The translations under genes were made by a program, and so were the position numbers. Under the pieces are notes generated by a model. That model had not been told where the DNA came from. It did not search any database and saw only the letters and a program-made list of their open reading frames with translations. This document shows, in pieces, positions 1 to 22,894 of a DNA stretch of 59,506 nucleotides (within the stretch, counting starts at the first letter, position 1; every line of letters starts with the position of its first letter). The DNA comes from Minisyncoccota bacterium (GTDB lineage Bacteria > Patescibacteriota > Minisyncoccia > Phycocordibacterales > UBA9973). The DNA is taken from contig JBAYKD010000004.1 of the NCBI GenBank assembly GCA_041664745.1, forward strand, positions 1 to 59,506, read 5' to 3'.

Positions 1-2
1 CA

Positions 3-398
3 GCCAAAGAGCTTAATGCCCCAGTTATACGAGAAGACCATAGTCTTTTTATAGAAGCACTAGGTATCCCTGGCCCATATATGAGTTATATAGAGAGAAA
101 AATTCCCGCGAATCTAATAAGTAGAATTATAAATTCATTGGGCAACAATAAAGGATGGTTCGAAGTATCGACAGTTTATGCAGAACCAAATGGAACAACT
201 TTTGAATATACTTTTAAAGTACCTATGACGTTCGGGGATGAACAAAAAGGAGTTAATGCTAAAGGCTGGAATGGTTTAATAAGATTAAATGACGAAAATA
301 GGGCGATAACAGAGTACCCCGAGGAAGAACGCCTCCATATTTGGAGTGAGGGCTATGAAGCAGTAATAAAATATTTGATGGAGAATAATAAAATATAA
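3..398 (+). CDS. hypothetical protein, probably 5'-truncated by the window edge
   Basis: The frame of the listed 81..398 ORF stays open back to nt 3 (AKELNAPVIREDHSLFIEALGIPGPY then MSYIER...). No recognisable motif. Confidence 0.4.
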   Translation, partial: AKELNAPVIREDHSLFIEALGIPGPYMSYIERKIPANLISRIINSLGNNKGWFEVSTVYAEPNGTTFEYTFKVPMTFGDEQKGVNAKGWNGLIRLNDENRAITEYPEEERLHIWSEGYEAVIKYLMENNKI

Positions 399-422
399 TT
401 ATAAAAAAACACTCTATATCCT

Positions 423-450
423 TTCACAAGAACCATTCTTGTGAATTTTT
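423..450 (+). terminator. hairpin plus T-tract after the first ORF
   Basis: TTCACAAGAA-CCA-TTCTTGTGAA forms a perfect 10-bp stem (423-432 / 436-445) followed by TTTTT. Confidence 0.45.
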
Positions 451-504
451 AAATGACAATTAACTCCAATAACAATAATCAATCATATATAGTATAATCA
501 TATT

Positions 505-1488
505 ATGAATGAATTACTATCTCATGTTAATAAAATTTATGGATTTAATTTTAATACTTTTGAAAAAGTTAAGGAGGGTTCTTTGTCTGAGAATTACATT
601 CTTATTGGAGATACTAATAAATATTTTCTTAAAAAATATCGTTTTAATAATGAAAACAAGATAAAAGAAATTCATTCAGTTAAGAATTACTTTGCACAAG
701 ATGGCATACCTGTAATTTTACCCATTAGGAATAAAAATAATAAAACCTTCTTTCTTTTTAAGAAAGAATATTATGCCCTTTTTCCTTTTATTTTTAACAA
801 AGAATTAAAAGAAGATTATTTAACTAATAAGACAATTATATCTCTAGGTGAGATGCTAGGAAGGATTCACTTATTGGGTAAAAACTCTAAGTTGCCTATC
901 AAAGAAGTATTTAAGGAATGGGATAAACAAAAATCTCTAAAAAAAATAAAGGTTATTAATTCAATAATTAGAAAAAAACAAAAAACAACTAATTTTGACA
1001 AATTAACACTTAAAAGTATTGAGACTAAGAAAAAATTAATAAAACTAAACACTATTCTTTTCAAAGATTTAAACTTAAAGAGCGATCATTTAATTCATGG
1101 TGATTATATTTACCATAATGTATTTTTTAATGATGATAAAGTTTTAAAAGTATTTGATTTTGAAAAGACCAATTATTCACCAAGAGTATATGAGTTACTA
1201 AGAGCTGTTTTTCATAGTTTTTTTAATAAAAGTATTAAAAAGAAAGATAATATTAGTAGAGCAAAATTGTTTATAAAAGCATATTGTAATATTTACCCGA
1301 TTTCAAAAAAAGAAATTTCTCAAGGATTAAAATTATTTTATTTAAAATTAATACATGGTGTTTGGGTTGAGGAAGAGCATTATATTAGAAACAATAATAG
1401 AGTAGATAAATTTTTGCAAAATAATTTTGATCTTTTGCAGTATTTGTCTGAGCATTATAATGAATTCGAGAAAGAATTACTCAATTAA
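505..1488 (+). CDS. aminoglycoside/choline/homoserine-kinase-type phosphotransferase (APH fold)
   Basis: Catalytic-loop-like LIHGDYIYHNVFF (HxDxxxxN) and a downstream VFDFE (DFG/DxD-like) motif. The size (327 aa) is typical of the family. Confidence 0.65.
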   Translation: MNELLSHVNKIYGFNFNTFEKVKEGSLSENYILIGDTNKYFLKKYRFNNENKIKEIHSVKNYFAQDGIPVILPIRNKNNKTFFLFKKEYYALFPFIFNKELKEDYLTNKTIISLGEMLGRIHLLGKNSKLPIKEVFKEWDKQKSLKKIKVINSIIRKKQKTTNFDKLTLKSIETKKKLIKLNTILFKDLNLKSDHLIHGDYIYHNVFFNDDKVLKVFDFEKTNYSPRVYELLRAVFHSFFNKSIKKKDNISRAKLFIKAYCNIYPISKKEISQGLKLFYLKLIHGVWVEEEHYIRNNNRVDKFLQNNFDLLQYLSEHYNEFEKELLN

Positions 1489-1571
1489 GTTATTCACACA
1501 AGAATTGTTCTTGCGAATCATGAGATACGTAATCAAAGGGCTTCACAATATATATGCTATATAATAAAAAA

Positions 1572-1599
1572 GTTGCTCCGTTTCGGGGGCAATTTTTTT
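1572..1599. terminator. hairpin between convergent genes
   Basis: GTTGCTCC-GTTTC-GGGGGCAA stem (one G.U pair) flanked by an A-run and a T-run. Confidence 0.45.
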
Positions 1600-1647
1600 A
1601 AATTACTTCATTTATTTAAAATACAAATAATTCTTAAACTTTTTTAT

Positions 1648-2166
1648 TTATAAAAAGTTTTTATAAATTTGAGAAACTTGTGGACCAATACTATTTTGAT
1701 ATTTACCTTTATATAAAATAATATCTCCAAAAGGAACCCAAAAACTTACCTGAGCTATTAACATACCAGGATATATTCTTACTGGTAATGTTGCATATAA
1801 TTGGAAAGTAGTTACACCATGAGATCCAATATCAATCAAATCTGCTGTAACATGAACAAACAACCCCATTCTGGCTGTTCCAGATTTTCCATGAATAATT
1901 GGTACATAAAAATCACTACCAATTCTCTCTTCTGAATGTCCTAGAATAAATTCTCCTGACTGAAGGACTAATCCTTCTTTTGGTATTATTATTTCATCAT
2001 ATAGTACTTTTTTTCTTGGATCTATAATTCCTTTCCTATATCTAATTATCTTATTTCCTAAAGATAAATCATACGAATTAGTAGTCGCTCTCTTTTTATT
2101 AAATGGAAAAATATCAATTTTATTATTTCTAACTTCTTTTATTATTTTATTTCCTGTTAATATCAT
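1648..2166 (-). CDS. dCTP deaminase/dUTPase-fold protein, catalytic Glu position is Gln
   Basis: GKSGTARMGLFVHVTADLIDIGSHGVTTFQLYATLPVRIYPGMLIAQVSFW aligns by eye with E. coli Dcd [52 protein letters not shown]. The TLE Glu is Q122 here (codon 1801-1803). Confidence 0.7.
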   Translation of the reverse strand: MILTGNKIIKEVRNNKIDIFPFNKKRATTNSYDLSLGNKIIRYRKGIIDPRKKVLYDEIIIPKEGLVLQSGEFILGHSEERIGSDFYVPIIHGKSGTARMGLFVHVTADLIDIGSHGVTTFQLYATLPVRIYPGMLIAQVSFWVPFGDIILYKGKYQNSIGPQVSQIYKNFL

Positions 2167-2707
2167 ATAATTTTGAGGGTAATAGTGGGGTAAATGATTC
2201 TCCTGGGTAATTTATAGAGCCATATTTTCCTTCATATTTTTTAAAACTACCAAAATTTTTCCAAAACGAAACTTGACCAATTATCATTCCAGAATATACT
2301 TTAATTGATTTTGTCGCAACAATTTCAAGTGTCCATTTATGAATTGAAGTTGTATGCCCAAGATTAGCAGAAACTTGTAAGAAAAGTCCATACCTACCAA
2401 TTGAACTTCTTCCAATTAAAGACATGGCATATTTGGAACTACCAATAATTTCTTTCGTATTAGCTAAATACATTTGACAAGGCTTTAAAACATATCCCTT
2501 TGTAGGAATAATAATACTTTTAAACACTGCCTTATCCCCATTAAATTTATCAAAAACCTTAATAGACTTTCCCAACCTATAATTATAACTATTGGGGTTT
2601 ATTTGATCTACACAAAATGGAAGAATCGTTATATTACCATTTTTTATTTCTTCAATTATTTTTCCCCCAGTTAAAATCATATGTAGTATTTGGATATTGT
2701 TTTTCAT
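2147..2707 (-). CDS. dCTP deaminase/dUTPase-fold protein (Glu retained)
   Basis: GRSSIGRYGLFLQVSANLGHTTSIHKWTLEIVATKSIKVYSGMIIGQVSFW. The N-terminus MILTGGKIIEEI parallels the neighbouring paralog, so the true start may be Met10 at 2680. It overlaps both neighbouring genes. Confidence 0.7.
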   Translation of the reverse strand: MKNNIQILHMILTGGKIIEEIKNGNITILPFCVDQINPNSYNYRLGKSIKVFDKFNGDKAVFKSIIIPTKGYVLKPCQMYLANTKEIIGSSKYAMSLIGRSSIGRYGLFLQVSANLGHTTSIHKWTLEIVATKSIKVYSGMIIGQVSFWKNFGSFKKYEGKYGSINYPGESFTPLLPSKLYDINRK

Positions 2708-3719
2708 TTTCGACCAAATAATTGATAATCATATTGCTTATATTTGTATTTCCCCCAAATTCTTCTTTCTCATAATCATCAACGTATTTTTTAATTTCTT
2801 CTATTCCAATATCGAGCTTGTGTTTAAAATATGTTAACGCTAAAAGATTAGTTCTTAATAATCTGGCCTTGTCTCTTGACCCAGGAGTTATTTTTTCTTT
2901 TAACATGACAACAACGACAGAAAGAGTATCTGAAAATTTAGTAGTTAAGCCAGATTTATATTTAATTATTTTACTTATAGATGATGCTTCTATTGAATTA
3001 CTTAAATTGAATTTTTTAGATATTAAAGTTCCTACCCCAATTCCCATTTCTGTTGCTATTGGAATATTATTCTTCTCAATCAATATAATATTACCAATAT
3101 CTTTAAATTCATTAGTCTTTTGATTTTTAATAGAAATATTAAAATTACGACCAGAAATATTTTCTTCCCCATACTTATGTCTATAACTATCAATATTACC
3201 CTCATCGGTAATATTGATAGAAAACTTATAATTTTTATTTAATTTTTTAATAATTTCTAATAAATCTGTGTCTAGAGAAGAAACATCTATTCTTATTCTA
3301 TTTTCATCAATTTTTAATGATGATAAAAATTTCATTGTTGTATCAGAGAGTTTATTTATAGCATCAAAAGGAGCTATTGCCCCCATTGCAGTAAAATATG
3401 AACTCCATTCTGGTATTATACTATCATCAAATAAAGTATTGGTATTGCGTGTTCTTAAACATTTTTGTACTAAAAAATATCCTTCCTTAGGAATAGGAAT
3501 GTCTTCTTTTAAATATTTTTTAAACACATTAGTAGTAGATCCAATAAATCTTACACTGTGATCTATCCCAGAAATAAGAGATGTGCATGGTTCATGTTTA
3601 ATATATCCCTCTGACCCAAAAACGTTAGAAAAAGAATTAATCGTTTCTGAATAAAGAGATCGTATTGATTCAATATTAAAATTTTGTAGACTAGTAGATT
3701 CTAAATTATTTTTTTCCAT
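2652..3719 (-). CDS. stand-alone alanyl-tRNA-synthetase catalytic-core-like protein (class II aaRS paralog)
   Basis: By-eye matches to the AlaRS N-terminal core. TSLISGIDHSVRFIGSTTNVFKKY matches [24 protein letters not shown], and VQKCLR matches SQRCVR. YFTAMGAIAP matches FFEMLGNFSF, and IATEMGIGVGTL matches VDTGMGLERI. KITPGSRDKARLLR matches MPSNENRGYVLRR. At 355 aa it has no tRNA-recognition, editing or C-Ala domains. Confidence 0.55.
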   Translation of the reverse strand: MEKNNLESTSLQNFNIESIRSLYSETINSFSNVFGSEGYIKHEPCTSLISGIDHSVRFIGSTTNVFKKYLKEDIPIPKEGYFLVQKCLRTRNTNTLFDDSIIPEWSSYFTAMGAIAPFDAINKLSDTTMKFLSSLKIDENRIRIDVSSLDTDLLEIIKKLNKNYKFSINITDEGNIDSYRHKYGEENISGRNFNISIKNQKTNEFKDIGNIILIEKNNIPIATEMGIGVGTLISKKFNLSNSIEASSISKIIKYKSGLTTKFSDTLSVVVVMLKEKITPGSRDKARLLRTNLLALTYFKHKLDIGIEEIKKYVDDYEKEEFGGNTNISNMIINYLVENEKQYPNTTYDFNWGKNN

Positions 3720-3837
3720 AGTTAGAAGATTACATTTTATTTATATAAATCAGATTTCAATTATTTATTTCAACAAAAACTTTATGATTTTAATCCGTCA
3801 ATGTGTATAAAATCATTTTGAAAAAATAGAAATATTT

Positions 3838-4833
3838 TTAATGATTTAATATTTCAATTTTAACTTTACCTTTTATTGCAGATATTTTAACTGTTCCACC
3901 GATTGGGAATGTAATAAAAGGGTTTGAATGACCAAAATCAGCATTTGCAATAATTGGCATTGATTTTAACTCCTTCTTGGTTTGGATAATATATTTTAAT
4001 TTCTCAATAGTCATTTCTGCTTTTTTTTGAAATCTTCCGATTACAATTCCCCTTACTTTATTAAAATTTGGCTGATGAATTAAAGATTGTAAATTTCGAT
4101 TAAATTCTACTCCAAAAAAATTTCCTACCATATCATCATCTTCAATAAAAATAATTGAGTTTGATATATCAGGCATAAATTTTGTTCCTTGTAGTAAATT
4201 TAGAGTACACAAATTTCCTCCCAAAATAACACCCTCTGCTTCACCTTTATTTATAATAATATATCCCTCATTTTTTTCAAAAATTCTATTGTCTTGATCT
4301 TTATACCAAGCATCATCTGACCATTTTTCTGATGTTTCAATCAAATATTTTTTATCTTCAACTAAACATTTATTAAAATAGTCCAGATTATAATCAAATC
4401 CTTTTTCCATAGCCCAAGTAGAAAAATGTAATCCTGAATAAGTAACCAATCCAGTTCTTGCAGTAATTGCATTTGCTAAAGCAGTAATGTCAGAATAACC
4501 ACACAAAATTTTTGGATTATTTTTTATCAACCCATAATCTAAATATGGTAATAATTCATTTGAATTAAATCCTCCGATTACAGTAAAAATTGCTTTAACT
4601 TTTTTATCTCTAAACGCTTGATGAATGTCGATTAATCTAGATTTAACAGAGGAAGAAAAAAATATGTCACATTCCTTACAATTTTTTGACAAAGTTACTT
4701 TATACCCCTGATTTTCTATATTTTCTTTTGCCAATTGAATAAATGAATCATCTAATAAAGACAGGCTCCTTGCTGGGGCTATTATTCTTATCTCATCTCC
4801 TTTTTTTAATTTTGATGGAATTATATATTTCAT
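3838..4833 (-). CDS. S66 family serine peptidase (LD-carboxypeptidase LdcA / microcin C7 immunity MccF type)
   Basis: GYSDITAL nucleophile motif, C-terminal ADFGHSNP His motif, and an N-terminal GDEIRIIAPA strand. The ORF track extends to 4911, but MKYIIPSKLKKGDEI (start 4833) matches the usual family N-terminus. Confidence 0.8.
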   Translation of the reverse strand: MKYIIPSKLKKGDEIRIIAPARSLSLLDDSFIQLAKENIENQGYKVTLSKNCKECDIFFSSSVKSRLIDIHQAFRDKKVKAIFTVIGGFNSNELLPYLDYGLIKNNPKILCGYSDITALANAITARTGLVTYSGLHFSTWAMEKGFDYNLDYFNKCLVEDKKYLIETSEKWSDDAWYKDQDNRIFEKNEGYIIINKGEAEGVILGGNLCTLNLLQGTKFMPDISNSIIFIEDDDMVGNFFGVEFNRNLQSLIHQPNFNKVRGIVIGRFQKKAEMTIEKLKYIIQTKKELKSMPIIANADFGHSNPFITFPIGGTVKISAIKGKVKIEILNH

Positions 4834-4961
4834 ATTTTTATTATACATTAAACTATTTAAATTCATAACCTTAATACGTTGAATAAATCCAACATTGAAG
4901 TGCAACTTCAAAAAAATTATTTAAATTAACTAAAAATTGATTTTAATCACATAATAAAAAA

Positions 4962-4991
4962 AGTTGCTCCATACAGAGCAACTTTTTTTAT
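4962..4991. terminator. bidirectional hairpin terminator
   Basis: AGTTGCTC-CATACAG-GAGCAACT with an A-run upstream and a T-run downstream. Confidence 0.5.
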
Positions 4992-5047
4992 ATTTCGCAA
5001 CGTTCTTGGAACGTCGTGTTAGAACACACAAGAAAATGAAATACTAT

Positions 5048-5971
5048 TTACTGTCGTACGAGAGTTGTACGTACGTACTCAGTAACCCCAAGCGTAAATT
5101 GCCCCTTTTGTTCATAGACGAACTTTTTGTCAGTAAGCTCTATGACAGTATAGATTCTGTCTCCACTTGAGAGGGTAAAGATATTAGTTGGAAGTACATT
5201 CCAGACATCATTTGCATCTAAAACCCCTGCTGTGTTAAACGACTCCATTTTCCCATTTGTGTAGAAATACCACTTATCAGTTAACAGTACTGGATTTAGT
5301 ATTGATGTGTATTCATAAACATGATTAACATCATACCATTCCTCCTTCGTCATTTTCCAATAACGCGATTTGTTGTCCGCGCCGTTGGATAAGATAAGGA
5401 AGTTGGTAAGAGTAAAACCAACTTGAACATCAGAATTCGCTGTGATATTTTTCAGCACGTATGGCTTTACGATAGCCACACTTACTCCATTAACCTTTAT
5501 AGAAGTTAATGTATATTCAGCATTCTCAGTGATGTTAAAAGGTAAATCGCTACCATATTCTACAACTGTAGATAATGGAGTGACCGTACCACCTGTACCT
5601 GCGGATGCAGTTACGGTGTATGTTACAGTTTCTGACATTATTTGGATATTCAAGTCTGTTTTTACACTTGGAACCAAATAGTAGAAACTACCAGTTCTAT
5701 AATCAGCAACTACAACTCCGCTTGAAAGTATTTTATACCTTTTATTCGGACCAGAGTTAAGATCAATAGAAAATGATTTTCCGTCTTCAACTCTTGTTGA
5801 GTTGTTGGGAAGAATTGGAGAGACTGTTACTCCGTCACATGGTAATACTGTGACAGTGTGGAAAATTTTTACTGGTTCAGGATCCAATGCTGGATCCTTT
5901 TTATTACAACTTTGGCATCCCAGTATGTTTAAATACAGGACGCAAACGAAAAAATACTTAAAATTTTTCAT
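5048..5971 (-). CDS. putative lipoprotein with two beta-rich repeat modules
   Basis: Signal peptide with lipobox (LNILGC). There are two similar modules (TVTVLPCDGVTVSP... and YTVTASAGTGGTVTP...). Confidence 0.55.
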   Translation of the reverse strand: MKNFKYFFVCVLYLNILGCQSCNKKDPALDPEPVKIFHTVTVLPCDGVTVSPILPNNSTRVEDGKSFSIDLNSGPNKRYKILSSGVVVADYRTGSFYYLVPSVKTDLNIQIMSETVTYTVTASAGTGGTVTPLSTVVEYGSDLPFNITENAEYTLTSIKVNGVSVAIVKPYVLKNITANSDVQVGFTLTNFLILSNGADNKSRYWKMTKEEWYDVNHVYEYTSILNPVLLTDKWYFYTNGKMESFNTAGVLDANDVWNVLPTNIFTLSSGDRIYTVIELTDKKFVYEQKGQFTLGVTEYVRTTLVRQ

Positions 5972-6109
5972 GGCCTTGTGTATTATTTTAGTGAAATTTA
6001 CATGCTTTAATTTACCTTAAGTATAGGACATTTTAAGTTTTTTGTCAATACCCATAAGTTAACAAAAGGTGGATAACTCCTACTCCTATATTTTTATAAC
6101 TTAAAAAAT

Positions 6110-6139
6110 AAAATACCTATATATAAATATAGGTATTTT
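6110..6139. terminator. 13-bp perfect hairpin downstream of the Hint-domain gene
   Basis: AAAATACCTATAT-ATAA-ATATAGGTATTTT. Confidence 0.5.
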
Positions 6140-6155
6140 ATAAGAAGTCTTTTTA

Positions 6156-7970
6156 TTAAGGAGCAACAGTATAAACCCAATAACAACTAGAAATTGCAGA
6201 ACAAGTAGCTGCAGTCTTTTGCTTGGTACAAACATAACTACCAGTAGCACTACCACATACACCATCAGGAGTAGAGACACCATTCCAACTACAACCATGA
6301 GTAAGCCAAGGATCCTGTGTACAAGTTGCTTGTGTTCCAAATTGATTACAACTCTGTCCTTCATAAGTAGTAGGACTACTACCGGTTACGGTTCCTGTAC
6401 AATTATAAGTTGTAACATAACCACCACAATAATCCTGAGTACACAAAGTAGCCCCACCAGTACAAGATTTAGTATAACCAGAAGGACAATTAAAGGAACA
6501 ATCTGCTTCACATCCACCAGCAATATTGGGAACTTGGCCAGCCTTACACGCCATCTTATTGTGAACCAAGTATCCATCAGCGTAGTAAGTATGGTCACCA
6601 CCTAGGATAAAGTTGTAGAGCTGTGTATCTGCCTTATTATTTTTGCTCTTTATAGTTTTAAGTAATACATTACCATTTTCTGTTATTAAAGTATCACCCA
6701 CCTTAAGCTCTGTGACTATTATGCCAATGTTCTCCTCGGCTGTTAGGCTTGGATTGATTGACTTCCAGCCATCTATTGTTTTGAATGGGTGCTCAGCTGT
6801 CACGAAGTATCTTCCTCCATTAAATGAATAGAGCTTCTTACTATTTAATTTCGGATCATGAAATCCTAAGACTTTATTATTCGTCTTCTCGCCCTTCAAT
6901 ACATCGCCTATATTCACATCCTGAATATTCTTCGTAGTACCATCCGCCATTTGTACAACAGTATCAGCTATGAAACAGGATGGATAATACGACGGGCAAA
7001 CATAGCCAGTATAGGTATAGACAGGATCAGCAGGAGGAATTACTCCAATAGGTACATCAGTGCAAGTAACACTAAAGGTTGTGTTTGATTTAAGATTGGA
7101 TGGAACACCTGAAGCAGAGACAACTGATCCAATTCCTGAACCACAAGAACCACTTCCATTTGGTGAAGAATATGAGCAAACACAAGAGGTTGGATTGCCT
7201 GTTGTTGACCAGGTAATATTTGCAGTACTATTATAAGCTACAGTCTCAGCTGGTTTACCATTAGCAAAAATTTGTACCCCTAATGCTGGAGGTAGTGGAG
7301 GAGGTGGTGGTGGTACAGACGCACTTACCGATGCATCTCCATAAGCTACAAGATTATAATTACTATAATTATCTATACCGTAGCAATAAATTGAGTAAAC
7401 CATAGAATCTGATACACCATAAAAAGTATGACTTCCAGATAGCCCTGTAAGGCCATTATTCCCATCACAGTAAGTCGCACCTGATGAAGACCAACTCACA
7501 GTTATATTATTAGAAGTACCCTGTACTATAGATGAAGGAGAAGCTGAAACAGATACTGACTTAGGAGATTCATTAAGATAAAAAGATACATTATTTGAGA
7601 AAGGAAAACCTTGGACAACTCCATTAAAATTTATATAATAATTTCCTGAAAGATATCCATTTAGATCAAATACAGTTGATCCATATTCAGAAAGGCCTCC
7701 AGCTCCCATATTAAGTATTGTTTGCGAAGAACCATAAGAAAAAGAAACGGGATTCCAAATAGAAGCATCAATTTGTGCACTAACAGAATTACAATAATAG
7801 CAATCAACCGATGCTGAGGCTATGGTGCTGGATGGAGTAGAAGCATCAACATTGACAGAAACGTATGCGTCACCAACCATAAAACTATCGGCACTCGCGA
7901 TCGAAGGAATAAGATTCACTAAAACAACAAGACCAAGAACAAATAATAATTTATTGAGGGTTTGTTTCAT
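6156..7970 (-). CDS. secreted multidomain protein: Ig-like modules, poly-Pro linker, Hint (bacterial intein-like) domain, Cys-rich C-terminal module
   Basis: The signal peptide MKQTLNKLLFVLGLVVLVNLIPSIASA makes 7970 the likely start (ORF track 8006). PPPPPPLPP linker. The Hint block runs from CFIADTVVQMADGTTK to DHTYYADGYLVHN. There are 15 Cys in the last 133 aa. Confidence 0.7.
   Translation of the reverse strand: MKQTLNKLLFVLGLVVLVNLIPSIASADSFMVGDAYVSVNVDASTPSSTIASASVDCYYCNSVSAQIDASIWNPVSFSYGSSQTILNMGAGGLSEYGSTVFDLNGYLSGNYYINFNGVVQGFPFSNNVSFYLNESPKSVSVSASPSSIVQGTSNNITVSWSSSGATYCDGNNGLTGLSGSHTFYGVSDSMVYSIYCYGIDNYSNYNLVAYGDASVSASVPPPPPPLPPALGVQIFANGKPAETVAYNSTANITWSTTGNPTSCVCSYSSPNGSGSCGSGIGSVVSASGVPSNLKSNTTFSVTCTDVPIGVIPPADPVYTYTGYVCPSYYPSCFIADTVVQMADGTTKNIQDVNIGDVLKGEKTNNKVLGFHDPKLNSKKLYSFNGGRYFVTAEHPFKTIDGWKSINPSLTAEENIGIIVTELKVGDTLITENGNVLLKTIKSKNNKADTQLYNFILGGDHTYYADGYLVHNKMACKAGQVPNIAGGCEADCSFNCPSGYTKSCTGGATLCTQDYCGGYVTTYNCTGTVTGSSPTTYEGQSCNQFGTQATCTQDPWLTHGCSWNGVSTPDGVCGSATGSYVCTKQKTAATCSAISSCYWVYTVAP
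6558..6977 (-). other. Hint / bacterial intein-like (BIL) domain within the 6156..7970 CDS
   Basis: N-terminal Cys344 (codon 6975-6977), a C-terminal His-Asn (Asn483 codon 6558-6560), and internal TAEHPF-type and GDHTYYADG blocks. The +1 residue is Lys rather than Cys/Ser/Thr. Confidence 0.65.
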
Positions 7971-8295
7971 TTTGTTTTTTCTTAAGACTAATAAAGTAAT
8001 AGGCAACTCCTGCGACTATGAGGAGGCCAATTATTGTAAATATAATTATCAATCCACTAGACTTCGCTGGTGTTGGTGCTTGGGCAGAATTAGAACCTGG
8101 CTTTGTTAAGAAATCTTTCTGATCTAGAACGTTGCCTTTATCATCTAATAGGGTTATTGATGCCTTTGGGTTTACACAATCTTTCGTAATCGTTGCAGGA
8201 ATTTCTACTTTTGGATTCTTAAGATCTTGTACAAGTGCTTGGCTCACAGGTGTGATGCATTCTTTACCCTTCTCGTTCACCATTGTTGCCTTCAC
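7951..8295 (-). CDS. C-terminal fragment (TM-anchored) of a split surface protein gene
   Basis: No signal peptide. C-terminal TM segment GLIIIFTIIGLLIVAGVAYYFI followed by KKKQ. Its frame is open upstream to 8385. See the 11-bp duplication at 8352-8373. Confidence 0.5.
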   Translation of the reverse strand: MKATMVNEKGKECITPVSQALVQDLKNPKVEIPATITKDCVNPKASITLLDDKGNVLDQKDFLTKPGSNSAQAPTPAKSSGLIIIFTIIGLLIVAGVAYYFISLKKKQNETNPQ

Positions 8296-8324
8296 GACAA
8301 AGTTGGTAAGAATATCTGTACTCT

Positions 8325-9272
8325 TTATACGACTTTTTGGATTTGTGCCGAGAGAGGTATATGAGAGGTATATGCAAATGATAATTTAGCAGTCTCTCCT
8401 TTCTTGTACGAATTCTTGTCTATTGTAAGGTTGAGAATAGTCGCCTGTGGTCCACTCAAAATGTACGTGGCATTTATTGTATTGGAAGTTACTACCCCTT
8501 CGGCCAATTTAACACCTACATTATAGACTTGAGGATTACTTACAGTAGGAAGTGTGATAGTGAAAGATTTAGTTTCTGCGGATTTAATTGTGATAGTGTC
8601 TGTACTGCCTCCTGTCTGTGGAGCAATGGTTCCATACACACTTTGATACAAAGTTTCAAATACTGGCTTAACAGTTAAACTTTTATTTTTAGAATTCAAT
8701 ACACTACAAGTCATACTAAGAGCTTCTGTTTTAGTAATTTCTACTCTTTGAGAAAGAGTATAATGAGGACTATCTTTTTCTCCTACTACTTGTAGATAAC
8801 AAGATGCCGGAAGAATCAAAAGCTCTTCTCCGATTGCTTTCATTGTAACCTTACCTAAAAGCATTCTTCCCAACATAAGGCCATTTTCATTCTTGCTCAT
8901 TAAGAATAGATTATATGTACCAGAAAGTATAGCAGGAGCTTGATATATGAATGCCTTGGAAAAAATAGCACCAGGAGTAAGAGTTAAAGAATCAGGGTAA
9001 ACTTTCTCATCGGCAATATATTGATTTTTAGGGTCAGTATTTAGAAGCTCTACTCCATACTTCACTCCAGACTGAGTCCCTTCTCTGTTTGAAATATTAA
9101 AAGAAATATTGAAGTCATTTTCTTTTTGAGAAACAATTTTGGCATTTTGAATGTTGACAGTCGCCAAGACTACAACATTACTTGCTGGTGGAGTTTCTAC
9201 TGCAAACACTGGCGTCACCAAAAAACAAAAGAGAAACAAAAAACTTATAGAAGAAAATTTAAATAAATTCAT
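8325..9272 (-). CDS. N-terminal fragment (signal peptide plus beta-rich ectodomain) of a split surface protein gene
   Basis: Signal peptide MNLFKFSSISFLFLFCFLVTPVFA and no membrane anchor. It ends 16 codons after entering the tandem duplication. Confidence 0.55.
   Translation of the reverse strand: MNLFKFSSISFLFLFCFLVTPVFAVETPPASNVVVLATVNIQNAKIVSQKENDFNISFNISNREGTQSGVKYGVELLNTDPKNQYIADEKVYPDSLTLTPGAIFSKAFIYQAPAILSGTYNLFLMSKNENGLMLGRMLLGKVTMKAIGEELLILPASCYLQVVGEKDSPHYTLSQRVEITKTEALSMTCSVLNSKNKSLTVKPVFETLYQSVYGTIAPQTGGSTDTITIKSAETKSFTITLPTVSNPQVYNVGVKLAEGVVTSNTINATYILSGPQATILNLTIDKNSYKKGETAKLSFAYTSHIPLSAQIQKVV
8352..8373. repeat. perfect 11-bp tandem duplication (GAGAGGTATAT x2) causing a frameshift
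   Basis: Read directly from the sequence. Deleting one copy joins the 8325..9272 frame to the 7951..8295 frame (...AYTS-LGTNPKSRIKSTDILTNFVVKATMVNEKG...). Confidence 0.85.
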
Positions 9273-9303
9273 AAATTAATAAAAGTTCGCAATTAAATAA
9301 TAA

Positions 9304-9344
9304 TAATTAGTCAATATAAGTATATCACTTATATTGACTAATTA
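9304..9344. promoter_or_regulatory. 18-bp perfect inverted repeat in the divergent promoter region upstream of nusA
   Basis: TAATTAGTCAATATAAGT-ATATC-ACTTATATTGACTAATTA. No clear T-tract, so an operator or structured element is more likely than a terminator. Confidence 0.3.
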
Positions 9345-9494
9345 AAAGTATTGCGGTAACATCTCAAGTGTAAGTCCGTCCTCGAACCGGGCTTTTATTT
9401 TTACTAAGATATCTATATTTAGTAAGAAATTACAATTTAATAAAAGGTATTTGTTTTTTGATTAAAACCAAAAACCAATTACCAAAAACCAATT

Positions 9495-10682
9495 ATGTTA
9501 GACCTCAAAACAATGAAGTCGGCATTGGACCAGCTTGAACAAGAGCGCAAAATCCCTCGAGAGAAGATTGTTGACGCTATAGAGCAAGCCCTGGCCGCCG
9601 CTTATAAGAAAGATTATGGTAAAAAAGGCCAGATCATACGTGCAAAGATAGATTTAGAAACAGGAACAATGGAGTTCAATCAAGTTAAGATTGTTGTTGA
9701 TGAATCTCTAGTACGAATGACAAAAGAAGATGATGAGGAAGAAGAAATTGCTGAAGATGATGATCGTGTACGATTTAATGAAGAGCATCACATTCTCCTC
9801 GAAGATGCAAAAAAAATAAAAAGTGATGTACAACTCAAGGAAGAGATAATATTCCCTCTTGAAAACCAAAGTGACTACGGACGTATCGCTGCTCAGACTG
9901 CGAAGCAAGTTATAATTCAAAAAATTCGTGAAGCAGAGAGAACTGCAATTGTAGATGAATACGGTAGCAAAGAAGGTGAAATTATAAACGGAATAGTTCA
10001 AAAAGTTGATCGTGGAATAGTCTACATCGATTTCAATCGTGCTACAGGTATAATTCTTCCAGAGGAACAAATTCCCGGAGAATTTTATCGACATGGAGAG
10101 AGAATAAAGGCTTACTTATACTCAATAGAGGAAACTCCCCGTGGAGTAAATCTTAAGCTTTCTCGTACTCATCCCCAGCTTATAGAAGGACTCTTTGCAA
10201 TGGAAGCTCCAGAAATAGCATCCGGAGTAGTTGAGATCAAAGCTATCGCCCGTGAAGCAGGTGCCCGTTCTAAGATCGCTGTTTACTCAAATGATGAGCA
10301 CGTAGATCCAGTAGGTTCTTGTGTTGGTCAAAAAGGATCACGCGTTACAACAGTCATGAGTGAATTAAATGGTGAGAAGATAGATATTATTCCTTGGTCA
10401 GCAGATCCAGTCGCATATATATCAAGTGCTATTTCTCCTGCAACTGTACTTAAAATAGAAGTCTCAGTAGAAGAACATAAGGCAACAATAGAAGTAGCAA
10501 TGGAGCAGCTATCCCTTGCTATCGGTAAGGGTGGACAAAATGTCCGTCTAGCCGCAAAGCTTACTGGATGGAGAATAGATATAAAAGGTATGGAGGCTTT
10601 AGGAATTAAAAGTGATGAAAGTTTAAGTGAAGATGATATACTAGATGGTGGAATTGTAGATGATGGTACAGAGGATAAGTAA
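9495..10682 (+). CDS. nusA: transcription termination/antitermination factor NusA
   Basis: NusA N-domain, S1 and two KH modules (VGQKGSRV, IGKGGQNVRLA). There is an acidic insertion, EDDEEEEIAEDDD. Confidence 0.93.
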   Translation: MLDLKTMKSALDQLEQERKIPREKIVDAIEQALAAAYKKDYGKKGQIIRAKIDLETGTMEFNQVKIVVDESLVRMTKEDDEEEEIAEDDDRVRFNEEHHILLEDAKKIKSDVQLKEEIIFPLENQSDYGRIAAQTAKQVIIQKIREAERTAIVDEYGSKEGEIINGIVQKVDRGIVYIDFNRATGIILPEEQIPGEFYRHGERIKAYLYSIEETPRGVNLKLSRTHPQLIEGLFAMEAPEIASGVVEIKAIAREAGARSKIAVYSNDEHVDPVGSCVGQKGSRVTTVMSELNGEKIDIIPWSADPVAYISSAISPATVLKIEVSVEEHKATIEVAMEQLSLAIGKGGQNVRLAAKLTGWRIDIKGMEALGIKSDESLSEDDILDGGIVDDGTEDK

Positions 10683-12854: not shown

Positions 12855-13847
12855 ATGAACATAATCTCTGTGAAAAATTTACATAAAGATTTTAGTTTCC
12901 CCGTTAAAAACTCAAATTCCAGTTGGATTAAAAATTTATTTCATCCAGAGATTAGGACAATCACAGCTGTCTCAGGAATTTCTTTTAATGTCAAAAAAGG
13001 AGAACGAATTGCTTTCATCGGCCCTAATGGTGCCGGTAAATCTACAACAATTAAAATGATGGCTGGAATACTTTTCCCAACAGGTGGAGAAATATCTATC
13101 CTTGGACTTAACCCCGTTAAGGATAGAAAAAAGTTAGCATACAAAATCGGAACTGTTTTTGGACAAAGATCTCAACTACTTCCGAACTTACCTCTTACTG
13201 ACTCATTAGAATTTTACGGAGTTATGTACGATATGACAGAAGAGCAAATTAAAACTCGAGTTAAAGAATTAGTAGATATTTTCTGCCTTGAGCCATTCTT
13301 AGATCAACCTGTTCGTAAACTTTCTCTAGGACAAAGGATGCGAGCAGAAGTTGCCGTCTCTCTAATTCATAAACCAGAAATTATATTTCTCGATGAACCA
13401 ACCATCGGTCTAGATGTTGTAGCCAAGAAATCACTTCGAGATCTATTGCTACGAATCAACAAAGAAGAGAATACAACAATCTTTCTAACTTCTCACGATG
13501 TGGGAGATATCGAGTCACTTTGCGACAGAACTGTGATCATAAACCACGGAACACTTATCAAAGACTTACCAACAGAAGATTTAAATAAAACTTTCTTTAA
13601 TGAAAAATATATTGATATTATACCAATTACCAAATTTGAAGACTTTCCAACTCTTCCTGAAGGTTTAGAATATTTATGTAAGGACTCAAACAAAATAACT
13701 ATTCGTATAAAAATAAATAAAATTAGCGCCAAGGAATCATTAAAAAAACTATTAGATATTTTTGATGTCGAAGATATAGATGTCTACTATGCAGATCTTG
13801 AGTCAGTAATTAGAAATATTTATGAGAGCGATTCGTCTACCAATTAA
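12855..13847 (+). CDS. ABC transporter ATP-binding protein (ABC-2 type system)
   Basis: Walker A GPNGAGKST, signature LSLGQRMR, Walker B IIFLDEPTIGLD. Confidence 0.9.
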   Translation: MNIISVKNLHKDFSFPVKNSNSSWIKNLFHPEIRTITAVSGISFNVKKGERIAFIGPNGAGKSTTIKMMAGILFPTGGEISILGLNPVKDRKKLAYKIGTVFGQRSQLLPNLPLTDSLEFYGVMYDMTEEQIKTRVKELVDIFCLEPFLDQPVRKLSLGQRMRAEVAVSLIHKPEIIFLDEPTIGLDVVAKKSLRDLLLRINKEENTTIFLTSHDVGDIESLCDRTVIINHGTLIKDLPTEDLNKTFFNEKYIDIIPITKFEDFPTLPEGLEYLCKDSNKITIRIKINKISAKESLKKLLDIFDVEDIDVYYADLESVIRNIYESDSSTN

Positions 13848-14622
13848 AATACTGAAAACACTCACAAAGGATAGTCTGCACTACCCTAGTAGAATGTATG
13901 CAAATATTTTTATCTTGATAGCAAGATTGGGGATACTTCTTGGGTTATATGCCTATGTATTTAAACTAAACGGCGGGACGGTAAACGGCGTCACTTTTCT
14001 TGTTGTTGCTTGGAGTATGTTTTTTTATTTTACTTTTTCAAATTTCAACTTGCGAAGAATATCAAGACTAATGATGACAGATGTGCAATCAGGAAGCGTT
14101 GAAATTTTTCTCAATAAGCCAATATCATATTTGTCATACAAAGTATGGTGGACATTTGGGTTAGGATTTTATAATTTTCTTTTTATTGGTTTTTTGAGTT
14201 TCATTATTTTGGCTCTAATTATTGGAATTCCACCATCAATGATGACTAGCTTATTTCTAATAACATTAATTATAGAATTTTTCCTCACTTCGATACTAAC
14301 GATAATAATTTATGCGATTGTTGGAGTATTTGCTTTTTGGATTGAGGATATAAATCCAGTGTTTTGGATTGTGGATAAATTTGTCATGATACTCGGAGGT
14401 TCATATTTACCAGTTGCACTCTTTCCAGCTTTCCTATACAACATAGCAATTTACAGTCCATTTGGGGCATCGATGTTTATCTCTCATATCGTTTATGACT
14501 CATGGAAAGTCGATTGGGTTAAACTAGTTGGAATACAAATATTTTGGATTATAGTTTTAGGTTTATTTATGGTTTGGCTATATAAAAAAGCCAGAGAAAA
14601 AGTATCAGTTAATGGTGGATAA
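13822..14622 (+). CDS. ABC-2 type transporter permease
   Basis: Polytopic hydrophobic protein directly coupled to the ATPase gene (overlapping stop/start). Confidence 0.7.
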   Translation: MRAIRLPIKILKTLTKDSLHYPSRMYANIFILIARLGILLGLYAYVFKLNGGTVNGVTFLVVAWSMFFYFTFSNFNLRRISRLMMTDVQSGSVEIFLNKPISYLSYKVWWTFGLGFYNFLFIGFLSFIILALIIGIPPSMMTSLFLITLIIEFFLTSILTIIIYAIVGVFAFWIEDINPVFWIVDKFVMILGGSYLPVALFPAFLYNIAIYSPFGASMFISHIVYDSWKVDWVKLVGIQIFWIIVLGLFMVWLYKKAREKVSVNGG

Positions 14623-15421
14623 TTTTATGATGAAAGAAATAAAATTTGCATTATATGCAATAAAAAAGAATATACAAAGTAGTTCTGAATTACGCACCAG
14701 CTTCCTGATGAATATTATCGGTATGGCCATAAACAATTTAGCTTTTGTATTTTTGTGGGTTTACTTTGTTAAATCAGTTGGAATCATCGGCGGATGGACT
14801 ACTTACGATATTATTGCCCTCAATGGTTTCTGTGCTCTTTCTTTTGGCCTTATTGTTTCAATATTTATGGGAACAAGAAAGATCCCAGAGTATGTGTCAT
14901 CTGGATCTTTCGATCGGTACATGCTTTCTCCAAAAAATTTAATACTTCGCATTGCTACATCTGCCTTTAGCCCTTCGGCAGTTGGAGATGCAATTTTTGG
15001 AATAATTTGTCTGACTGTATATGGGTTTTTAATACACATAAGTTTTATCCAAATAATATTTATATTTATTTTAACAATTTTTGCTTCAATAATATTCTTC
15101 TCAATGACGTTGATTATCAATGCATTGAGCTTTTACTTTATTGATGCCACTTCTTTCACAGATAGCGTCTTCCAGTTATTTTTTACTCCTACTCTTTTCC
15201 ATGGTGGAGCATTCCACGGTGCAATGAGATTTATCTTCACATTTATGATTCCTTCTCTATTAATTGCAGCAATTCCAACCGAGACAATAAAAAGTGTATC
15301 GATTACCGCTCTCCTCTTAATTGGACTTGGTTCTGTCGTATGGTTTTTCATTGCAGTAAAACTATTTAACCACTCTATCAAAAGATATGAGAGTTCAAAC
15401 TTCATGACCTTTGGTCAGTAG
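14612..15421 (+). CDS. ABC-2 type transporter permease (second subunit)
   Basis: Polytopic hydrophobic protein. The start could instead be Met at 14627, just after the upstream stop. Confidence 0.7.
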   Translation: MVDNFMMKEIKFALYAIKKNIQSSSELRTSFLMNIIGMAINNLAFVFLWVYFVKSVGIIGGWTTYDIIALNGFCALSFGLIVSIFMGTRKIPEYVSSGSFDRYMLSPKNLILRIATSAFSPSAVGDAIFGIICLTVYGFLIHISFIQIIFIFILTIFASIIFFSMTLIINALSFYFIDATSFTDSVFQLFFTPTLFHGGAFHGAMRFIFTFMIPSLLIAAIPTETIKSVSITALLLIGLGSVVWFFIAVKLFNHSIKRYESSNFMTFGQ

Positions 15422-19668: not shown

Positions 19669-20922
19669 TTAAATAAGCCTTTTATATTCTTTATTCCACT
19701 TATTAATATCTACTCTAATAAATAAATCAATAATTTTATCAGGTGACATTCCACTATCCTGCATTTTTTGAAGAACAAGAAAAGCTTCATTCAATATCTT
19801 TTTATATAAAATAACATCATTATTTGATAGTTTTTCATAAAAAGAAATATAATTATATTCTAAAAAATCTTTTATTTTATCTAATTTCAGACCTTCAATC
19901 AAAAAAGCAAATATTTCAGCCTTCGCACAATCAAGACTATAAGCTATCCCTTCTTTAAAAACACCATAACTATAAGAAAAATAATAATCTTTTAAATGTT
20001 GTTGCTCGTGAACGAATATCCTATCAGATTCTTCCGGAAAATCAATCTTCGCCGAAACAACAGTCACTGGAGTCTCATCTTTAAAACAAGATGCCCCACT
20101 TGACTTTGAATGATCTACATCAAGTGTATCTTTATCTTTCTCTAGAAAAGCTTGAAAGGCGTCGTGGTCATCTAAAATTGTTAAATTTATTGAATAAGGA
20201 GTATAAGTAATTTCAATTTTATCAAGATTAATTTTTTTTATATTATCAGGATTTATTATTAAAGCACTAATCGTATCTATTTTTGAGTTTAGATTTTTAT
20301 ATTTTAATATTTTTTGATAACATTCCCAATATTTATCTACCCTAAATTCTACTTCCCATTTAGATTTTTTATCCAATAGACTGTCATCAAAACTAAGTAT
20401 ATAATTGGTCAAATCTTCTTTATTTAAAGTATTTTCTTCATATTTAAACTCTATATAATCCCAAATAGCAACATAAAATTTCGATAATTCTTGGCTTAAT
20501 TTCTCTTTTCTTTTTTTGTAAAGTTCTATTGCATATGGACGCAATTTTGAATCAATTTTAAGAATATCTGATGGTTTATTAATTAAATCATCAAAATTTA
20601 AAGCGAGTTCATCTTTGGAGTATTTTTTCTTTTTTTTATAAAGCTCTAAAGCATATGAGCGTAAATCTAAATCAATTTTAAGAATATCTGCTTCTTCGTG
20701 AATTAAATCATCAAAACTTAAAATTAGTTCTCTCTTGCGAGATAAGAATGAGTTATAATTTTCTTGAAGTTTTGTTTGGCGATCATCATTTTTCTTTTTT
20801 TCTAAAGATTCAGCTAATTCCATTTTCTCCACTACTTGGGGATTATTTAAATATTCATCAATTCCTTCATTGATAGATTTGTCCTTACCTGTTTTTGAAT
20901 TTATCCAAATTTCTGGCTTCAT
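19669..20922 (-). CDS. hypothetical protein with an HExxH motif and an internal 40-aa tandem repeat
   Basis: FVHEQQHL (codons 19996-20010). The repeat is LILSFDDLIHEEADILKIDLDLRSYALELYKK / LALNFDDLINKPSDILKIDSKLRPYAIELYKK (20488-20727). The gene is very AT-rich. Confidence 0.45.
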   Translation of the reverse strand: MKPEIWINSKTGKDKSINEGIDEYLNNPQVVEKMELAESLEKKKNDDRQTKLQENYNSFLSRKRELILSFDDLIHEEADILKIDLDLRSYALELYKKKKKYSKDELALNFDDLINKPSDILKIDSKLRPYAIELYKKRKEKLSQELSKFYVAIWDYIEFKYEENTLNKEDLTNYILSFDDSLLDKKSKWEVEFRVDKYWECYQKILKYKNLNSKIDTISALIINPDNIKKINLDKIEITYTPYSINLTILDDHDAFQAFLEKDKDTLDVDHSKSSGASCFKDETPVTVVSAKIDFPEESDRIFVHEQQHLKDYYFSYSYGVFKEGIAYSLDCAKAEIFAFLIEGLKLDKIKDFLEYNYISFYEKLSNNDVILYKKILNEAFLVLQKMQDSGMSPDKIIDLFIRVDINKWNKEYKRLI

Positions 20923-21756: not shown

Positions 21757-21830
21757 CGGGGTGTAGTATATCGGTAGTATCCGTGTTTTGGGAACACGAG
21801 GGCCGGGTTCGATTCCCGGCACCCCGACCA
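21757..21830 (+). tRNA. tRNA-Pro (anticodon UGG), CCA encoded
   Basis: Acceptor CGGGGTG/CACCCCG, anticodon loop TTTGGGA, T arm CCGGG-TTCGATT-CCCGG, 3' ACCA. Confidence 0.9.
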
Positions 21831-21882
21831 GTATGATGTATCGTTTGAATTTTTGTTTTATTTAAGTTAATATAAGAAAACT

Positions 21883-21953
21883 GCGGTGTTGGTTTAGTGG
21901 TAGAACACGTCCTTGCCAAGGATGAGACAGGAGTTCGATTCTCCTACGCCGCA
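21883..21953 (+). tRNA. tRNA-Gly (anticodon GCC), CCA not encoded
   Basis: Acceptor GCGGTGT/ACGCCGC (one G.U pair), anticodon loop TTGCCAA, T arm AGGAG-TTCGATT-CTCCT. Confidence 0.9.
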
Positions 21954-21956
21954 CAA

Positions 21957-21983
21957 AAGAAAAACAGCGATAAGCTGTTTTTC
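21957..21983 (+). terminator. hairpin terminator after the tRNA pair
   Basis: AAAACAGC-GATAA-GCTGTTTTT. Confidence 0.6.
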
Positions 21984-22092
21984 GCGGCGTAGAAAGCCAA
22001 CTGCTTGGCTCTCGTAGGAGAATCGAAAGGCTTTTCCTTATCGAAGATGGAAAAGCACCTGGCTATGTAATAGCCGATTCTCCCCTATTACC

Positions 22093-22509: not shown

Positions 22510-22521
22510 ATAATCACAACA

Positions 22522-22563
22522 GTTACATGTGTAACCTATTAAATCGTTTCATGTGAAACGATT
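22522..22563. promoter_or_regulatory. two adjacent inverted repeats immediately upstream of yraN
   Basis: GTTACATGTGTAAC (22522-22535) and AATCGTTTCA-TG-TGAAACGATT (22542-22563). Both are centred on CATGTG. Confidence 0.35.
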
Positions 22564-22822: not shown

Positions 22823-22894
22823 TGCACCCGCCAGGACTCGAACCTGGAACATCTGCTTCGAAGGCAGGTATGATATCCGTTTCACTACGGGTGC
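22823..22894 (-). tRNA. tRNA-Arg (anticodon UCG), CCA not encoded
   Basis: The reverse complement reads GCACCCG...CTTCGAA loop...CCAGG-TTCGAGT-CCTGG...CGGGTGC-A. Confidence 0.88.

Follow-up and report, generated by a model that had tools for sequence, protein, structure and literature searches.

A four-gene operon combining an MccF-like S66 peptidase, an AlaRS-like protein and a dCTP-deaminase-fold pair: a candidate system for aminoacyl-nucleotide chemistry

What could a peptidase, a fragment of an alanyl-tRNA synthetase (AlaRS) and two dCTP-deaminase-like proteins do together? The question is raised by the left end of contig JBAYKD010000004.1 of a Minisyncoccota bacterium (GenBank assembly GCA_041664745.1), whose whole 59.5-kb length is the window analyzed here. 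An original prediction, made from the DNA sequence alone, had called a cluster of five genes at 505-4911: a kinase, two dCTP-deaminase paralogs, an AlaRS-core paralog and an S66 peptidase. The positions and all five family calls proved correct when examined with open reading frame (ORF) listing, Pfam, profile and structure searches. The functional unit, however, is four genes, not five: the S66 peptidase, the AlaRS-like protein (AlaRSL), and the dCTP-deaminase-fold proteins DCD-A and DCD-B. These four recur together in other genomes, while the kinase is not linked to them elsewhere.

The reading that we favor, at a probability of about one half, is that the operon serves the synthesis and control of an aminoacyl-(deoxy)pyrimidine-nucleotide conjugate that would mimic an aminoacyl-adenylate, as do the processed warhead of microcin C (McC) and ascamycin. 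As natural inhibitors of aminoacyl-tRNA synthetases (aaRSs), mimics of this kind (processed McC, ascamycin, albomycin and agrocin) rank with the most potent, and to our knowledge only a handful of biosynthetic routes to them have been described. The evidence for this reading comes from the folds and active-site motifs of the four proteins, from the genes that accompany them in other genomes, and from the resemblance of several of these partners to McC enzymes.

The four proteins of the operon

The 355-aa AlaRSL sequence alone has no match in Pfam, NCBIfam or PDB sequences. A database search returned 61 relatives, many with a precomputed PF01411 match, and a 55-sequence family profile matches AlaRS catalytic fragments (1riq, E=3e-13); hhalign of the family against AlaRS gives a probability of 97%. 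For an AlphaFold model of the protein (predicted local distance difference test score, pLDDT, 91.5; predicted template modeling score, pTM, 0.89), the leading Foldseek matches are all AlaRS catalytic fragments (3hxu, 1riq, 9jc7 and 4xem; TMq 0.68-0.70, probability 1.0), with GlyRS-alpha ranking far below them. On this profile and model evidence, the predicted assignment of the 355-aa protein as a derived paralog of the AlaRS catalytic core is confirmed.

The residues of AlaRSL were aligned to the E. coli AlaRS sequence, itself verified against 3HXU. AlaRSL keeps R89 (equivalent to the motif-2 R69), F109 (F90), N210 (N212) and D264 (D285). The position of AlaRS D235 is occupied by E224, which is invariant in the 55 sequences. 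The class II motif-3 Arg242 is replaced by Thr, Ser or Val family-wide (T231 in the window protein), W170 by Arg or Lys family-wide (Arg in the window protein), and E209 by Asp across the family. The protein consists of the aminoacylation core and a partial tRNA-recognition helical domain, and the editing and C-Ala domains are missing. With 15 invariant columns in its alignment and 372 representative clusters (50% identity) found by the family profile at E<=1e-30, the AlaRSL family is sizeable and under selection. Among the representatives are further long members of 498-627 aa (P0231, P0256, P0270 and P0301).

For the S66 peptidase, the original prediction had left the choice between an MccF-type and an LdcA-type enzyme. 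In a phmmer search against the PDB, the window protein scores 408 bits with Lmo1638 (4h1h), 392 with BA_5613, 153 with BaMccF and 128 with EcMccF, against 49-77 bits with LdcA-type structures. Its identity to E. coli MccF is 30% (E=1e-38), and the LdcA equivalog model NF008424 gives it 104.8 bits, for a cutoff of 378. The Ser/Glu/His triad is intact (the S of GYSD, the E of IEDD and the H of GHS), and the catalytic Ser is the residue mutated from Ser to Ala in 4INJ. The 'aWY' Trp of the WSDDaWY loop lines up in the alignment with the 'sinW' Trp of BaMccF, which we take to be BaMccF W180 and presumably the counterpart of W186 in the E. coli enzyme. E. coli MccF W186 stacks on adenine, stand-alone MccF-like genes confer McC resistance, and LdcA gives no protection against McC (PMC8323819). 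By sequence, the window S66 is thus MccF-like rather than LdcA-like and falls in the Lmo1638/BA_5613 subfamily; its neighborhood agrees, with no mur or amp murein-recycling gene linked to the module in the ~90 loci examined.

The peptidase and AlaRSL also co-evolve. Their pairwise distances are strongly correlated (Mantel r=0.88, p=0.0005, n=26), and nearly all AlaRSL-linked S66 proteins belong to one subfamily, 50-55% identical to the window S66. In one locus (L028:5245-7323; loci other than the window are cited by their labels), a single 692-aa ORF carries an N-terminal AlaRSL fused to a complete S66 (residues 380-679). At L009 and L046, an S66 of a different clade (29% identity) occupies the same position, which sequence comparison identifies as a non-orthologous replacement.

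The motif states of DCD-A and DCD-B were read from an alignment to the Mycobacterium tuberculosis (Mtb) and Bacillus halodurans dCTP deaminases (4xjc, 2qxx). DCD-A keeps the GRSSxGR motif and the catalytic Glu (WTLE), and its 'IDPGF' Asp motif is replaced by NLGH. DCD-B keeps the Asp in 'LIDIG', its catalytic Glu is changed to Gln (TTFQL; TLQ/TFQ in the family), and its motif 2 reads GKSGTAR. The full canonical site, combining the Glu (E. coli E138/Mtb E129) with the 'IDPGF' Asp, is present in neither subunit, and both score under the 92.8-bit cutoff of TIGR02274 (DCD-B 90.6, DCD-A 60.8 bits). Two paralog types with these complementary losses are conserved across 6 distant loci. DCD-B has 1,561 homologs; the best 120 listed are all at least 70% identical to it, and in 12 retrieved sequences (70-100% identical) the core motif is almost invariant. 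A housekeeping function for the pair was considered and rejected: it lies nearly always inside the cassette described below, and a separate canonical Dcd coexists with it at L009.

Gene neighborhoods and the cassette family

To place the operon in a genomic context, 37 genome loci and the contigs of individual homologs were fetched, and their ORFs were called and clustered. S66 accompanies AlaRSL in 28/36 loci. The dominant AlaRSL arrangement, as annotated with Pfam and the PDB, is HD – methyltransferase – AlaRSL – S66 – AsnRS-like core. The DCD pair occurs with AlaRSL in a minority of loci: the window, L009/L046/L051, L003, L010, L014, L017 and L049.

The DCD pair has a cassette of its own, in the order S66 – pyridoxal-phosphate (PLP) decarboxylase of the ornithine/diaminopimelate fold – S-adenosylmethionine (SAM) methyltransferase-fold protein – DCD-A – DCD-B – class II aaRS-like gene(s). 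This order, with one or two aaRS-like proteins, is the canonical form of the family. In 51 metagenome loci seeded with DCD-B, many of them on truncated contigs, DCD-A was found in 40, the MccD-like methyltransferase-fold gene in 30, the PLP decarboxylase in 20 and S66 in 16. The aaRS-like slot is variable. In some cassettes it holds a PheRS-alpha-like core alongside a 473-482-aa tRNA-synt_2 protein (AsnRS/AspRS-type). In others, a divergent AlaRS fragment (type II) comes after a near-canonical one (type I) in which every key residue is retained. The third option is that of the window, an AlaRS-like protein of type III. The window operon has neither an MccD-like gene nor a decarboxylase and encodes no aaRS-like protein besides AlaRSL, and its DCD-A and DCD-B are 75% and 80% identical to their canonical-cassette homologs (L052 for DCD-A). 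From its gene content, it is best described as a reduced variant of the canonical cassette.

Several cassette proteins resemble enzymes of the McC pathway. The SAM methyltransferase-fold protein is 26-29% identical to E. coli MccD over 95% of its length, and its best matches among 72,556 plasmids are mccD genes, with the mcc operon verified. The decarboxylase-fold protein shows weak similarity to the N-domain of MccE (E~1e-9), and the canonical-cassette S66 is 36% identical to MccF. In McC, the aminopropyl group of the phosphoramidate is added by MccD and MccE (PMC10491745). A likeness to MccD was also considered for the c2 methyltransferase of the main AlaRSL cassette and rejected, as blastp found no similarity; only the methyltransferase of the DCD cassette is MccD-like. 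The idea of a producer/immunity set, one of two functions offered by the original prediction, gains strong comparative support from these MccD- and MccE-like partners and from the interchangeable class II aaRS-like ones.

Other variants, two of them from the cultured isolates Paenibacillus massiliensis and Clostridium polysaccharolyticum, carry additional genes. In P. massiliensis (L014) these encode a metallophosphoesterase, a major facilitator superfamily (MFS) transporter and two ATP-grasp L-amino-acid ligases; C. polysaccharolyticum (L017) has DUF6271, glycosyltransferase and ATP-binding cassette (ABC) transporter genes; and in a Janthinobacterium metagenome-assembled genome (MAG; L044) an MFS transporter is joined by an NDK-like protein. 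Radical SAM, P-loop and HIT proteins occur in alphaproteobacterial loci, a NUDIX protein in L049, and HD and HAD partners in further variants. Immunity to McC-type compounds through HIT enzymes (MccH) is known (PMC8323819). By homology, these added genes point to small-molecule biosynthesis. In at least four different arrangements (L011/12, L024/27, L038 and L049/50/L089), the module has a full-length ProRS of the archaeal/eukaryote type within it or next to it; at L049 this ProRS (6465-7952) follows proB-proA-proC.

The kinase does not share this linkage. Its HGDxxxxN and DFE motifs are intact. It was rejected as part of the module: the neighborhood clustering leaves it, like the 105-aa ORF, as a singleton, it is absent beside the module in L009, L046 and the P0005 contig, and a 74%-identical relative carries the module at the same NusA/H+-PPase locus without it. 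The kinase family is widespread in Patescibacteria, and its closest homologs lie in unrelated contexts; the neighbors of an 80%-identical one include a carbamoyltransferase, a glycosyltransferase and an HprK-like gene, and no cassette is present there. Source annotations name the family 'homoserine kinase type II' or RdoA. One homolog (P0405, 477 aa) is fused to a NUDIX domain, a fusion which hints that the family acts on a nucleotide-related small molecule.

The module is found in Patescibacteria, Omnitrophota, Paenibacillus, Clostridium, Alpha- and Gammaproteobacteria, Janthinobacterium and a Calothrix plasmid, and its closest relative is in a Saccharibacteria MAG. Its GC content is below that of the flanks in 8/10 loci. 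Low GC and a sporadic distribution across phyla mark it, as far as sequence can tell, as a horizontally mobile accessory cassette. The genome scan for the AlaRSL module returned no locus from Listeria or Bacillus.

Three RNA features were noted near module loci. A tRNA-His(GTG) lies ~100 nt upstream of the module S66 in the Saccharibacteria MAG (L009:8775-8849) and may be an integration site or a coincidence; the window module has no adjacent tRNA. A LOOT RNA motif (83 bits; L046:6145-6272) sits ~700 nt upstream of S66, and a c-di-GMP-I riboswitch lies at the edge of L003 (51-133), neither with an obvious link to the module.

Locus architecture and other features of the contig

The four genes (1648-4911) are bracketed by two terminator-like hairpins, with the kinase outside (Table 1). 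The overlaps between the middle genes, taken by the original prediction as a sign of an operon, are real, but that between AlaRSL and DCD-A measures 56 nt only as listed. From the DCD-A start conserved in homologs, an ATG at 2680 and likely the true start, it is 29 nt, and a 29-nt overlap is also found at L001; the DCD-A/DCD-B overlap is 20 nt. Similarly, S66 homology begins at an ATG at 4833 (331 aa from there), which is probably the start in place of the TTG at 4911.

Table 1. Genes and hairpins at the left end of the window.
Feature	Position	Strand	Basis or remark
APH/ChoK-type small-molecule kinase	505-1488	+	PF01636, E=1e-13; convergent to the operon
Bidirectional terminator-like hairpin	1566-1600		Between DCD-B and the convergent kinase
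DCD-B, dCTP-deaminase fold	1648-2166	-	PF22769, E=2e-32; last operon gene
DCD-A, dCTP-deaminase fold	2147-2707	-	PF22769, E=4e-26
AlaRS-like protein (AlaRSL), 355 aa	2652-3719	-	Family profile and structure model
S66 peptidase	3838-4911	-	First operon gene; Pfam Peptidase_S66 N- and C-terminal domains
Hairpin, perfect 16-nt arms and T-run	4954-4991		Between the 5048-5971 gene (37% GC) and S66

The five genes had been judged AT-rich, rich in Lys, Asn and Ile, and acquired-looking, and their computed composition is indeed deviant. The GC content of 505-4911 is 25.7%, against 35.5±1.4% (minimum 32.1%) in windows of the same size elsewhere on the contig; GC at third codon positions (GC3) is 11-18% against 22-32%, and Lys+Asn+Ile make up 27-35% of the five proteins against 17-25%. 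A sharp GC step at ~5000 is marked by the right-hand hairpin. The 5' arms of both hairpins contain an exact 14-nt direct repeat, AAAAAAGTTGCTCC (1566-1579 and 4957-4970), and its 12-nt core, AAAAAGTTGCTC, has one further exact copy in the window, at 17964. This pair may be the footprint of an insertion of the module into a terminator. As a boundary element of the whole family the repeat was ruled out, being absent from all 111 related loci (0/111). An Rfam search of window positions 1-9500 and 7 loci found no T-box or riboswitch leader for the module that could have pointed to the amino acid, and a sigma-70 promoter scan of the AT-rich DNA gave 39 sites for 40 expected.

The remaining genes of the contig include those for NusA, H+-PPase, trigger factor, RNase Y, PNPase, the CCA-adding enzyme and UvrD, together with very large proteins lacking Pfam domains, a set that resembles a genome of the Patescibacteria type. 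A second gene of deviant composition (19669-20922, minus strand; GC 25.8%, GC3 16.5%; 417 aa, no Pfam match), situated immediately upstream of a tRNA cluster (21757-23094), was probably acquired as well. Among the large surface-type proteins without Pfam domains (5048-9272 and 36656-53667), a 616-aa secreted-looking protein (6156-8006, minus strand) has a sub-threshold Hint/Vint (intein-like) match and a Cys-rich C-terminus. At the right contig end, a TraG/VirB4-like P-loop ATPase followed by a 334-aa ORF (56338-59203, plus strand) may belong to a conjugative element or to one resembling a type IV secretion system. An ABC-2 ATPase gene and two ABC2_membrane_6 permease genes (12855-15421, plus strand) cluster (c14, c60 and c61) with three ABC genes that directly follow AlaRSL/DCD in L017 (~6650-9400); the resemblance may be coincidental, as the window copies lie 8 kb away in DNA of normal GC.

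Proposed function and comparison with known systems

In the favored reading, a DCD-A/DCD-B heteromer would bind a nucleotide of the (d)CTP/(d)UTP type and prepare the nucleotide moiety, one subunit perhaps contributing deaminase chemistry and the other dUTPase-type chemistry at the alpha-phosphate. AlaRSL would then attach an amino acid to this nucleotide, either from aminoacyl-tRNA in the manner of AcmF, the AlaRS-like enzyme of the ascamycin pathway, or via its own adenylate. Finally, the MccF-type S66 would hydrolyze the amide bond of the aminoacyl-nucleotide, shielding the synthetase of the producer or regulating the level of the compound. The folds, motif states, linkage, co-evolution, fusion and partner homology to MccD, MccE and MccF are what was observed, and each catalytic step of the scheme is inferred from them.

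Several points weigh against this scheme. The product and the activity of all cassette members are deduced from sequence, and the role of the DCD pair from its motifs and its gene partners. Missing from the window variant are the MccD- and MccE-like genes, an exporter and a canonical AlaRS fragment. Exporters are also absent from most Patescibacteria cassettes, a poor fit for an antibiotic that is secreted. Neither MccB/ThiF nor an MccA-like gene is present, which makes the bond-forming chemistry a conjecture: no MccB/ThiF was found among the recurrent or adjacent proteins by Pfam scans, nor in the precomputed Pfam tables of module neighborhoods, and no MccA-like peptide gene turned up, although short peptide ORFs were not searched for systematically. 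Since the window AlaRSL keeps the equivalents of R69, F90 and N212, it could still form an adenylate. The adjacent ProRS is not explained by the scheme; it could be a resistant copy of the target, a supplier of the donor like AcmD, the AlaRS copy of the ascamycin cluster, or a sign of a proline-related role.

A role in resistance or detoxification only, in which the module protects against exogenous aminoacyl-nucleotide or nucleoside antibiotics and produces nothing, seems unlikely to us. S66 would then cleave the drug, the DCD pair would deaminate or hydrolyze a toxic pyrimidine nucleotide, and AlaRSL would serve as a decoy or as an inactivator that re-acylates. Such a role would suit the McC resistance given by MccF-like genes alone (PMC8323819), the stand-alone occurrence of the window S66 subfamily in Listeria and Bacillus, the missing exporter of Patescibacteria cassettes and the nucleotide hydrolases among the accessory partners (HIT, NUDIX, HD and HAD). 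However, MccD- and MccE-like genes encode tailoring rather than resistance enzymes (PMC10491745), and in some variants there are exporters, radical SAM enzymes and amino-acid ligases of the ATP-grasp type. The interchangeable aaRS-like cores, which include fully competent-looking AlaRS fragments, likewise suggest synthesis.

Anti-phage defense, the second function offered by the original prediction, is improbable. It would work by dCTP depletion or, as abortive infection, by an aaRS-inhibiting aminoacyl-nucleotide made upon infection, with S66 as the off switch. Stand-alone dCTP deaminases are a published anti-phage defense, the region is AT-rich and acquired, the module is sporadic and mobile, an integrase lies nearby at L049, and an intracellular effector would need no exporter. 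Nevertheless, PADLOC gave no hit at E<=0.1 for the window module proteins or the DCDs of canonical cassettes, where its only match was to a generic methyltransferase domain. Neither DCD has both the Glu and the Asp, the TIGR02274 scores stay under the cutoff, and the extra domains of defense dCTP deaminases are missing. In relatives, moreover, the module is flanked by housekeeping genes and not by defense islands.

Modification of a cell-wall precursor is more doubtful still. AlaRSL would act as an Ala-tRNA-dependent transferase on a UDP-linked muropeptide, following the logic of FemX and MurM, while an LdcA-like S66 trims the stem peptide and the DCD pair feeds in uridine nucleotides. S66 is the family of LD-carboxypeptidases, Ala-tRNA-dependent addition to UDP-MurNAc-peptides is known, and at L055 Amidase_2 and Wzy_C genes lie a few genes downstream of the cassette. 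But the window S66 scores much higher on MccF-type structures than on LdcA and keeps the loop Trp aligned with MccF, none of the ~90 loci links the module to recycling genes, and the MccD/MccE-like, HIT and NUDIX partners do not fit such a role. Finally, a chance assembly of housekeeping or paralogous neighbors in an AT-rich patch, with the DCD pair as a dCTP deaminase-dUTPase and AlaRSL as a decaying duplicate, is very hard to credit: DCD-B is 70-85% identical across phyla, as a housekeeping protein might be, and the locus is syntenic in the 74%-identical relative, but linkage is conserved across phyla despite rearranged gene order, AlaRSL is under selection and both co-evolves and fuses with S66, L009 retains its separate canonical Dcd, and the DCD pair is rarely found outside the cassette in the 51-locus sample.

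The synthesis of an aminoacyl-nucleotide conjugate also has a more specific and speculative form, which we hold to be rather unlikely: that the cassette is a ribosome- and MccB-independent route to N-acyl-phosphoramidate warheads of the McC type. Ammonia freed at the deaminase-type site of DCD-A would be the nucleophile at the dUTPase-type site of DCD-B, so that the heteromer, an enzyme of a new kind, would convert a pyrimidine (d)NTP to the nucleoside 5'-phosphoramidate. AlaRSL would acylate the NH2 of this phosphoramidate from aminoacyl-tRNA, as AcmF does with a sulfamate. The interchangeable AlaRS-, AsnRS/AspRS- and PheRS-like modules would set the amino acid and hence the synthetase that is inhibited, and S66 and, in variants, an MccH-like HIT enzyme would cleave the two labile bonds for immunity.

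The cassette family is widespread, mostly in Patescibacteria and also in Firmicutes, Proteobacteria and Cyanobacteria. If the proposed synthesis is correct, it would represent a new modular enzymology, in which aaRS paralogs confer specificity and an enzyme of the dCTP-deaminase fold is split between two subunits; it would give a physiological role to the structurally solved Lmo1638/BA_5613 S66 proteins; and it would mean that episymbiotic bacteria of the candidate phyla radiation, with their tiny genomes, invest in chemistry that targets translation. The original prediction had held that the combination is not a known pathway, and in the full-text literature, within incomplete coverage that gives no proof of novelty, no description of the cassette was found.

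The DCD pair shares the PF22769 fold and most motifs with Dcd and bifunctional DCD-DUT enzymes (best PDB matches 4xjc, 2qxx and 1xs1), but consists of two obligately paired paralogs, each lacking one hairpin hallmark residue (the equivalents of Mtb D119 and E129), embedded in a cassette that resembles secondary metabolism. AlaRSL has the class II aminoacylation fold of canonical AlaRS with the motif-2 Arg, but lacks Asp235, Trp170, Arg242 and the editing and C-Ala domains, and alone it falls under the PF01411 threshold. Lmo1638 (4H1H) and BA_5613 (4E5S) are 55% identical to the window S66 and share its triad and the WSDDxW[YF]xDQ loop; unlike it, they are stand-alone proteins with only generic PDB titles, and no linkage to aaRS-like or DCD genes was seen here.

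Ascamycin offers a parallel for AlaRSL. AcmF, AcmD and AcmE of its biosynthesis were reportedly described by Zheng et al. in 2024. AcmF, from Streptomyces sp. 80H647, is a truncated AlaRS-like protein with aminoacylation and tRNA-recognition domains only; it carries N219Q and D232E, has reportedly lost most ATP-binding residues, does not activate alanine, and transfers Ala from Ala-tRNA(Ala) onto the NH2 of a nucleoside sulfamate (PMC12945691). The Ala-tRNA(Ala) is made by AcmD, the canonical AlaRS copy of the cluster, and the hydrolase AcmE removes the alanine (PMC12945691). As judged from the description of AcmF, not its sequence, AlaRSL has the same truncation and an Asp-to-Glu change at the D235 equivalent; it differs in keeping the Asn (N210) and the R69 and F90 equivalents and in losing the motif-3 Arg and W170. 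The AcmD/AcmF pair has an analog in those cassettes where a near-canonical AlaRS fragment is accompanied by a divergent one. A deacylating hydrolase is encoded alongside in both systems, but AcmE belongs to the alpha/beta hydrolase family and the cassette enzyme to S66, and the chemistry of 5'-O-sulfamoyl-2-chloroadenosine has no counterpart genes here.

The module also resembles the McC system. The S66 is homologous to MccF, with the triad and the aligned loop Trp, related cassettes carry an MccD-like SAM enzyme and an MccE-N-like decarboxylase fold, and the product would be expected to fall in the same class, an aminoacyl-nucleotide inhibitor of an aaRS. In contrast to the McC system, the cassettes use class II aaRS-like proteins and a dCTP-deaminase-fold pair, and the MccC exporter is missing from most cassette loci. 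The kind of compound proposed, an aaRS-inhibiting aminoacyl-nucleotide with MccF-type immunity, is thus already known, whereas the machinery, aaRS-like specificity modules joined to a split DCD-fold enzyme and working without a ThiF enzyme or a precursor peptide, would be new.

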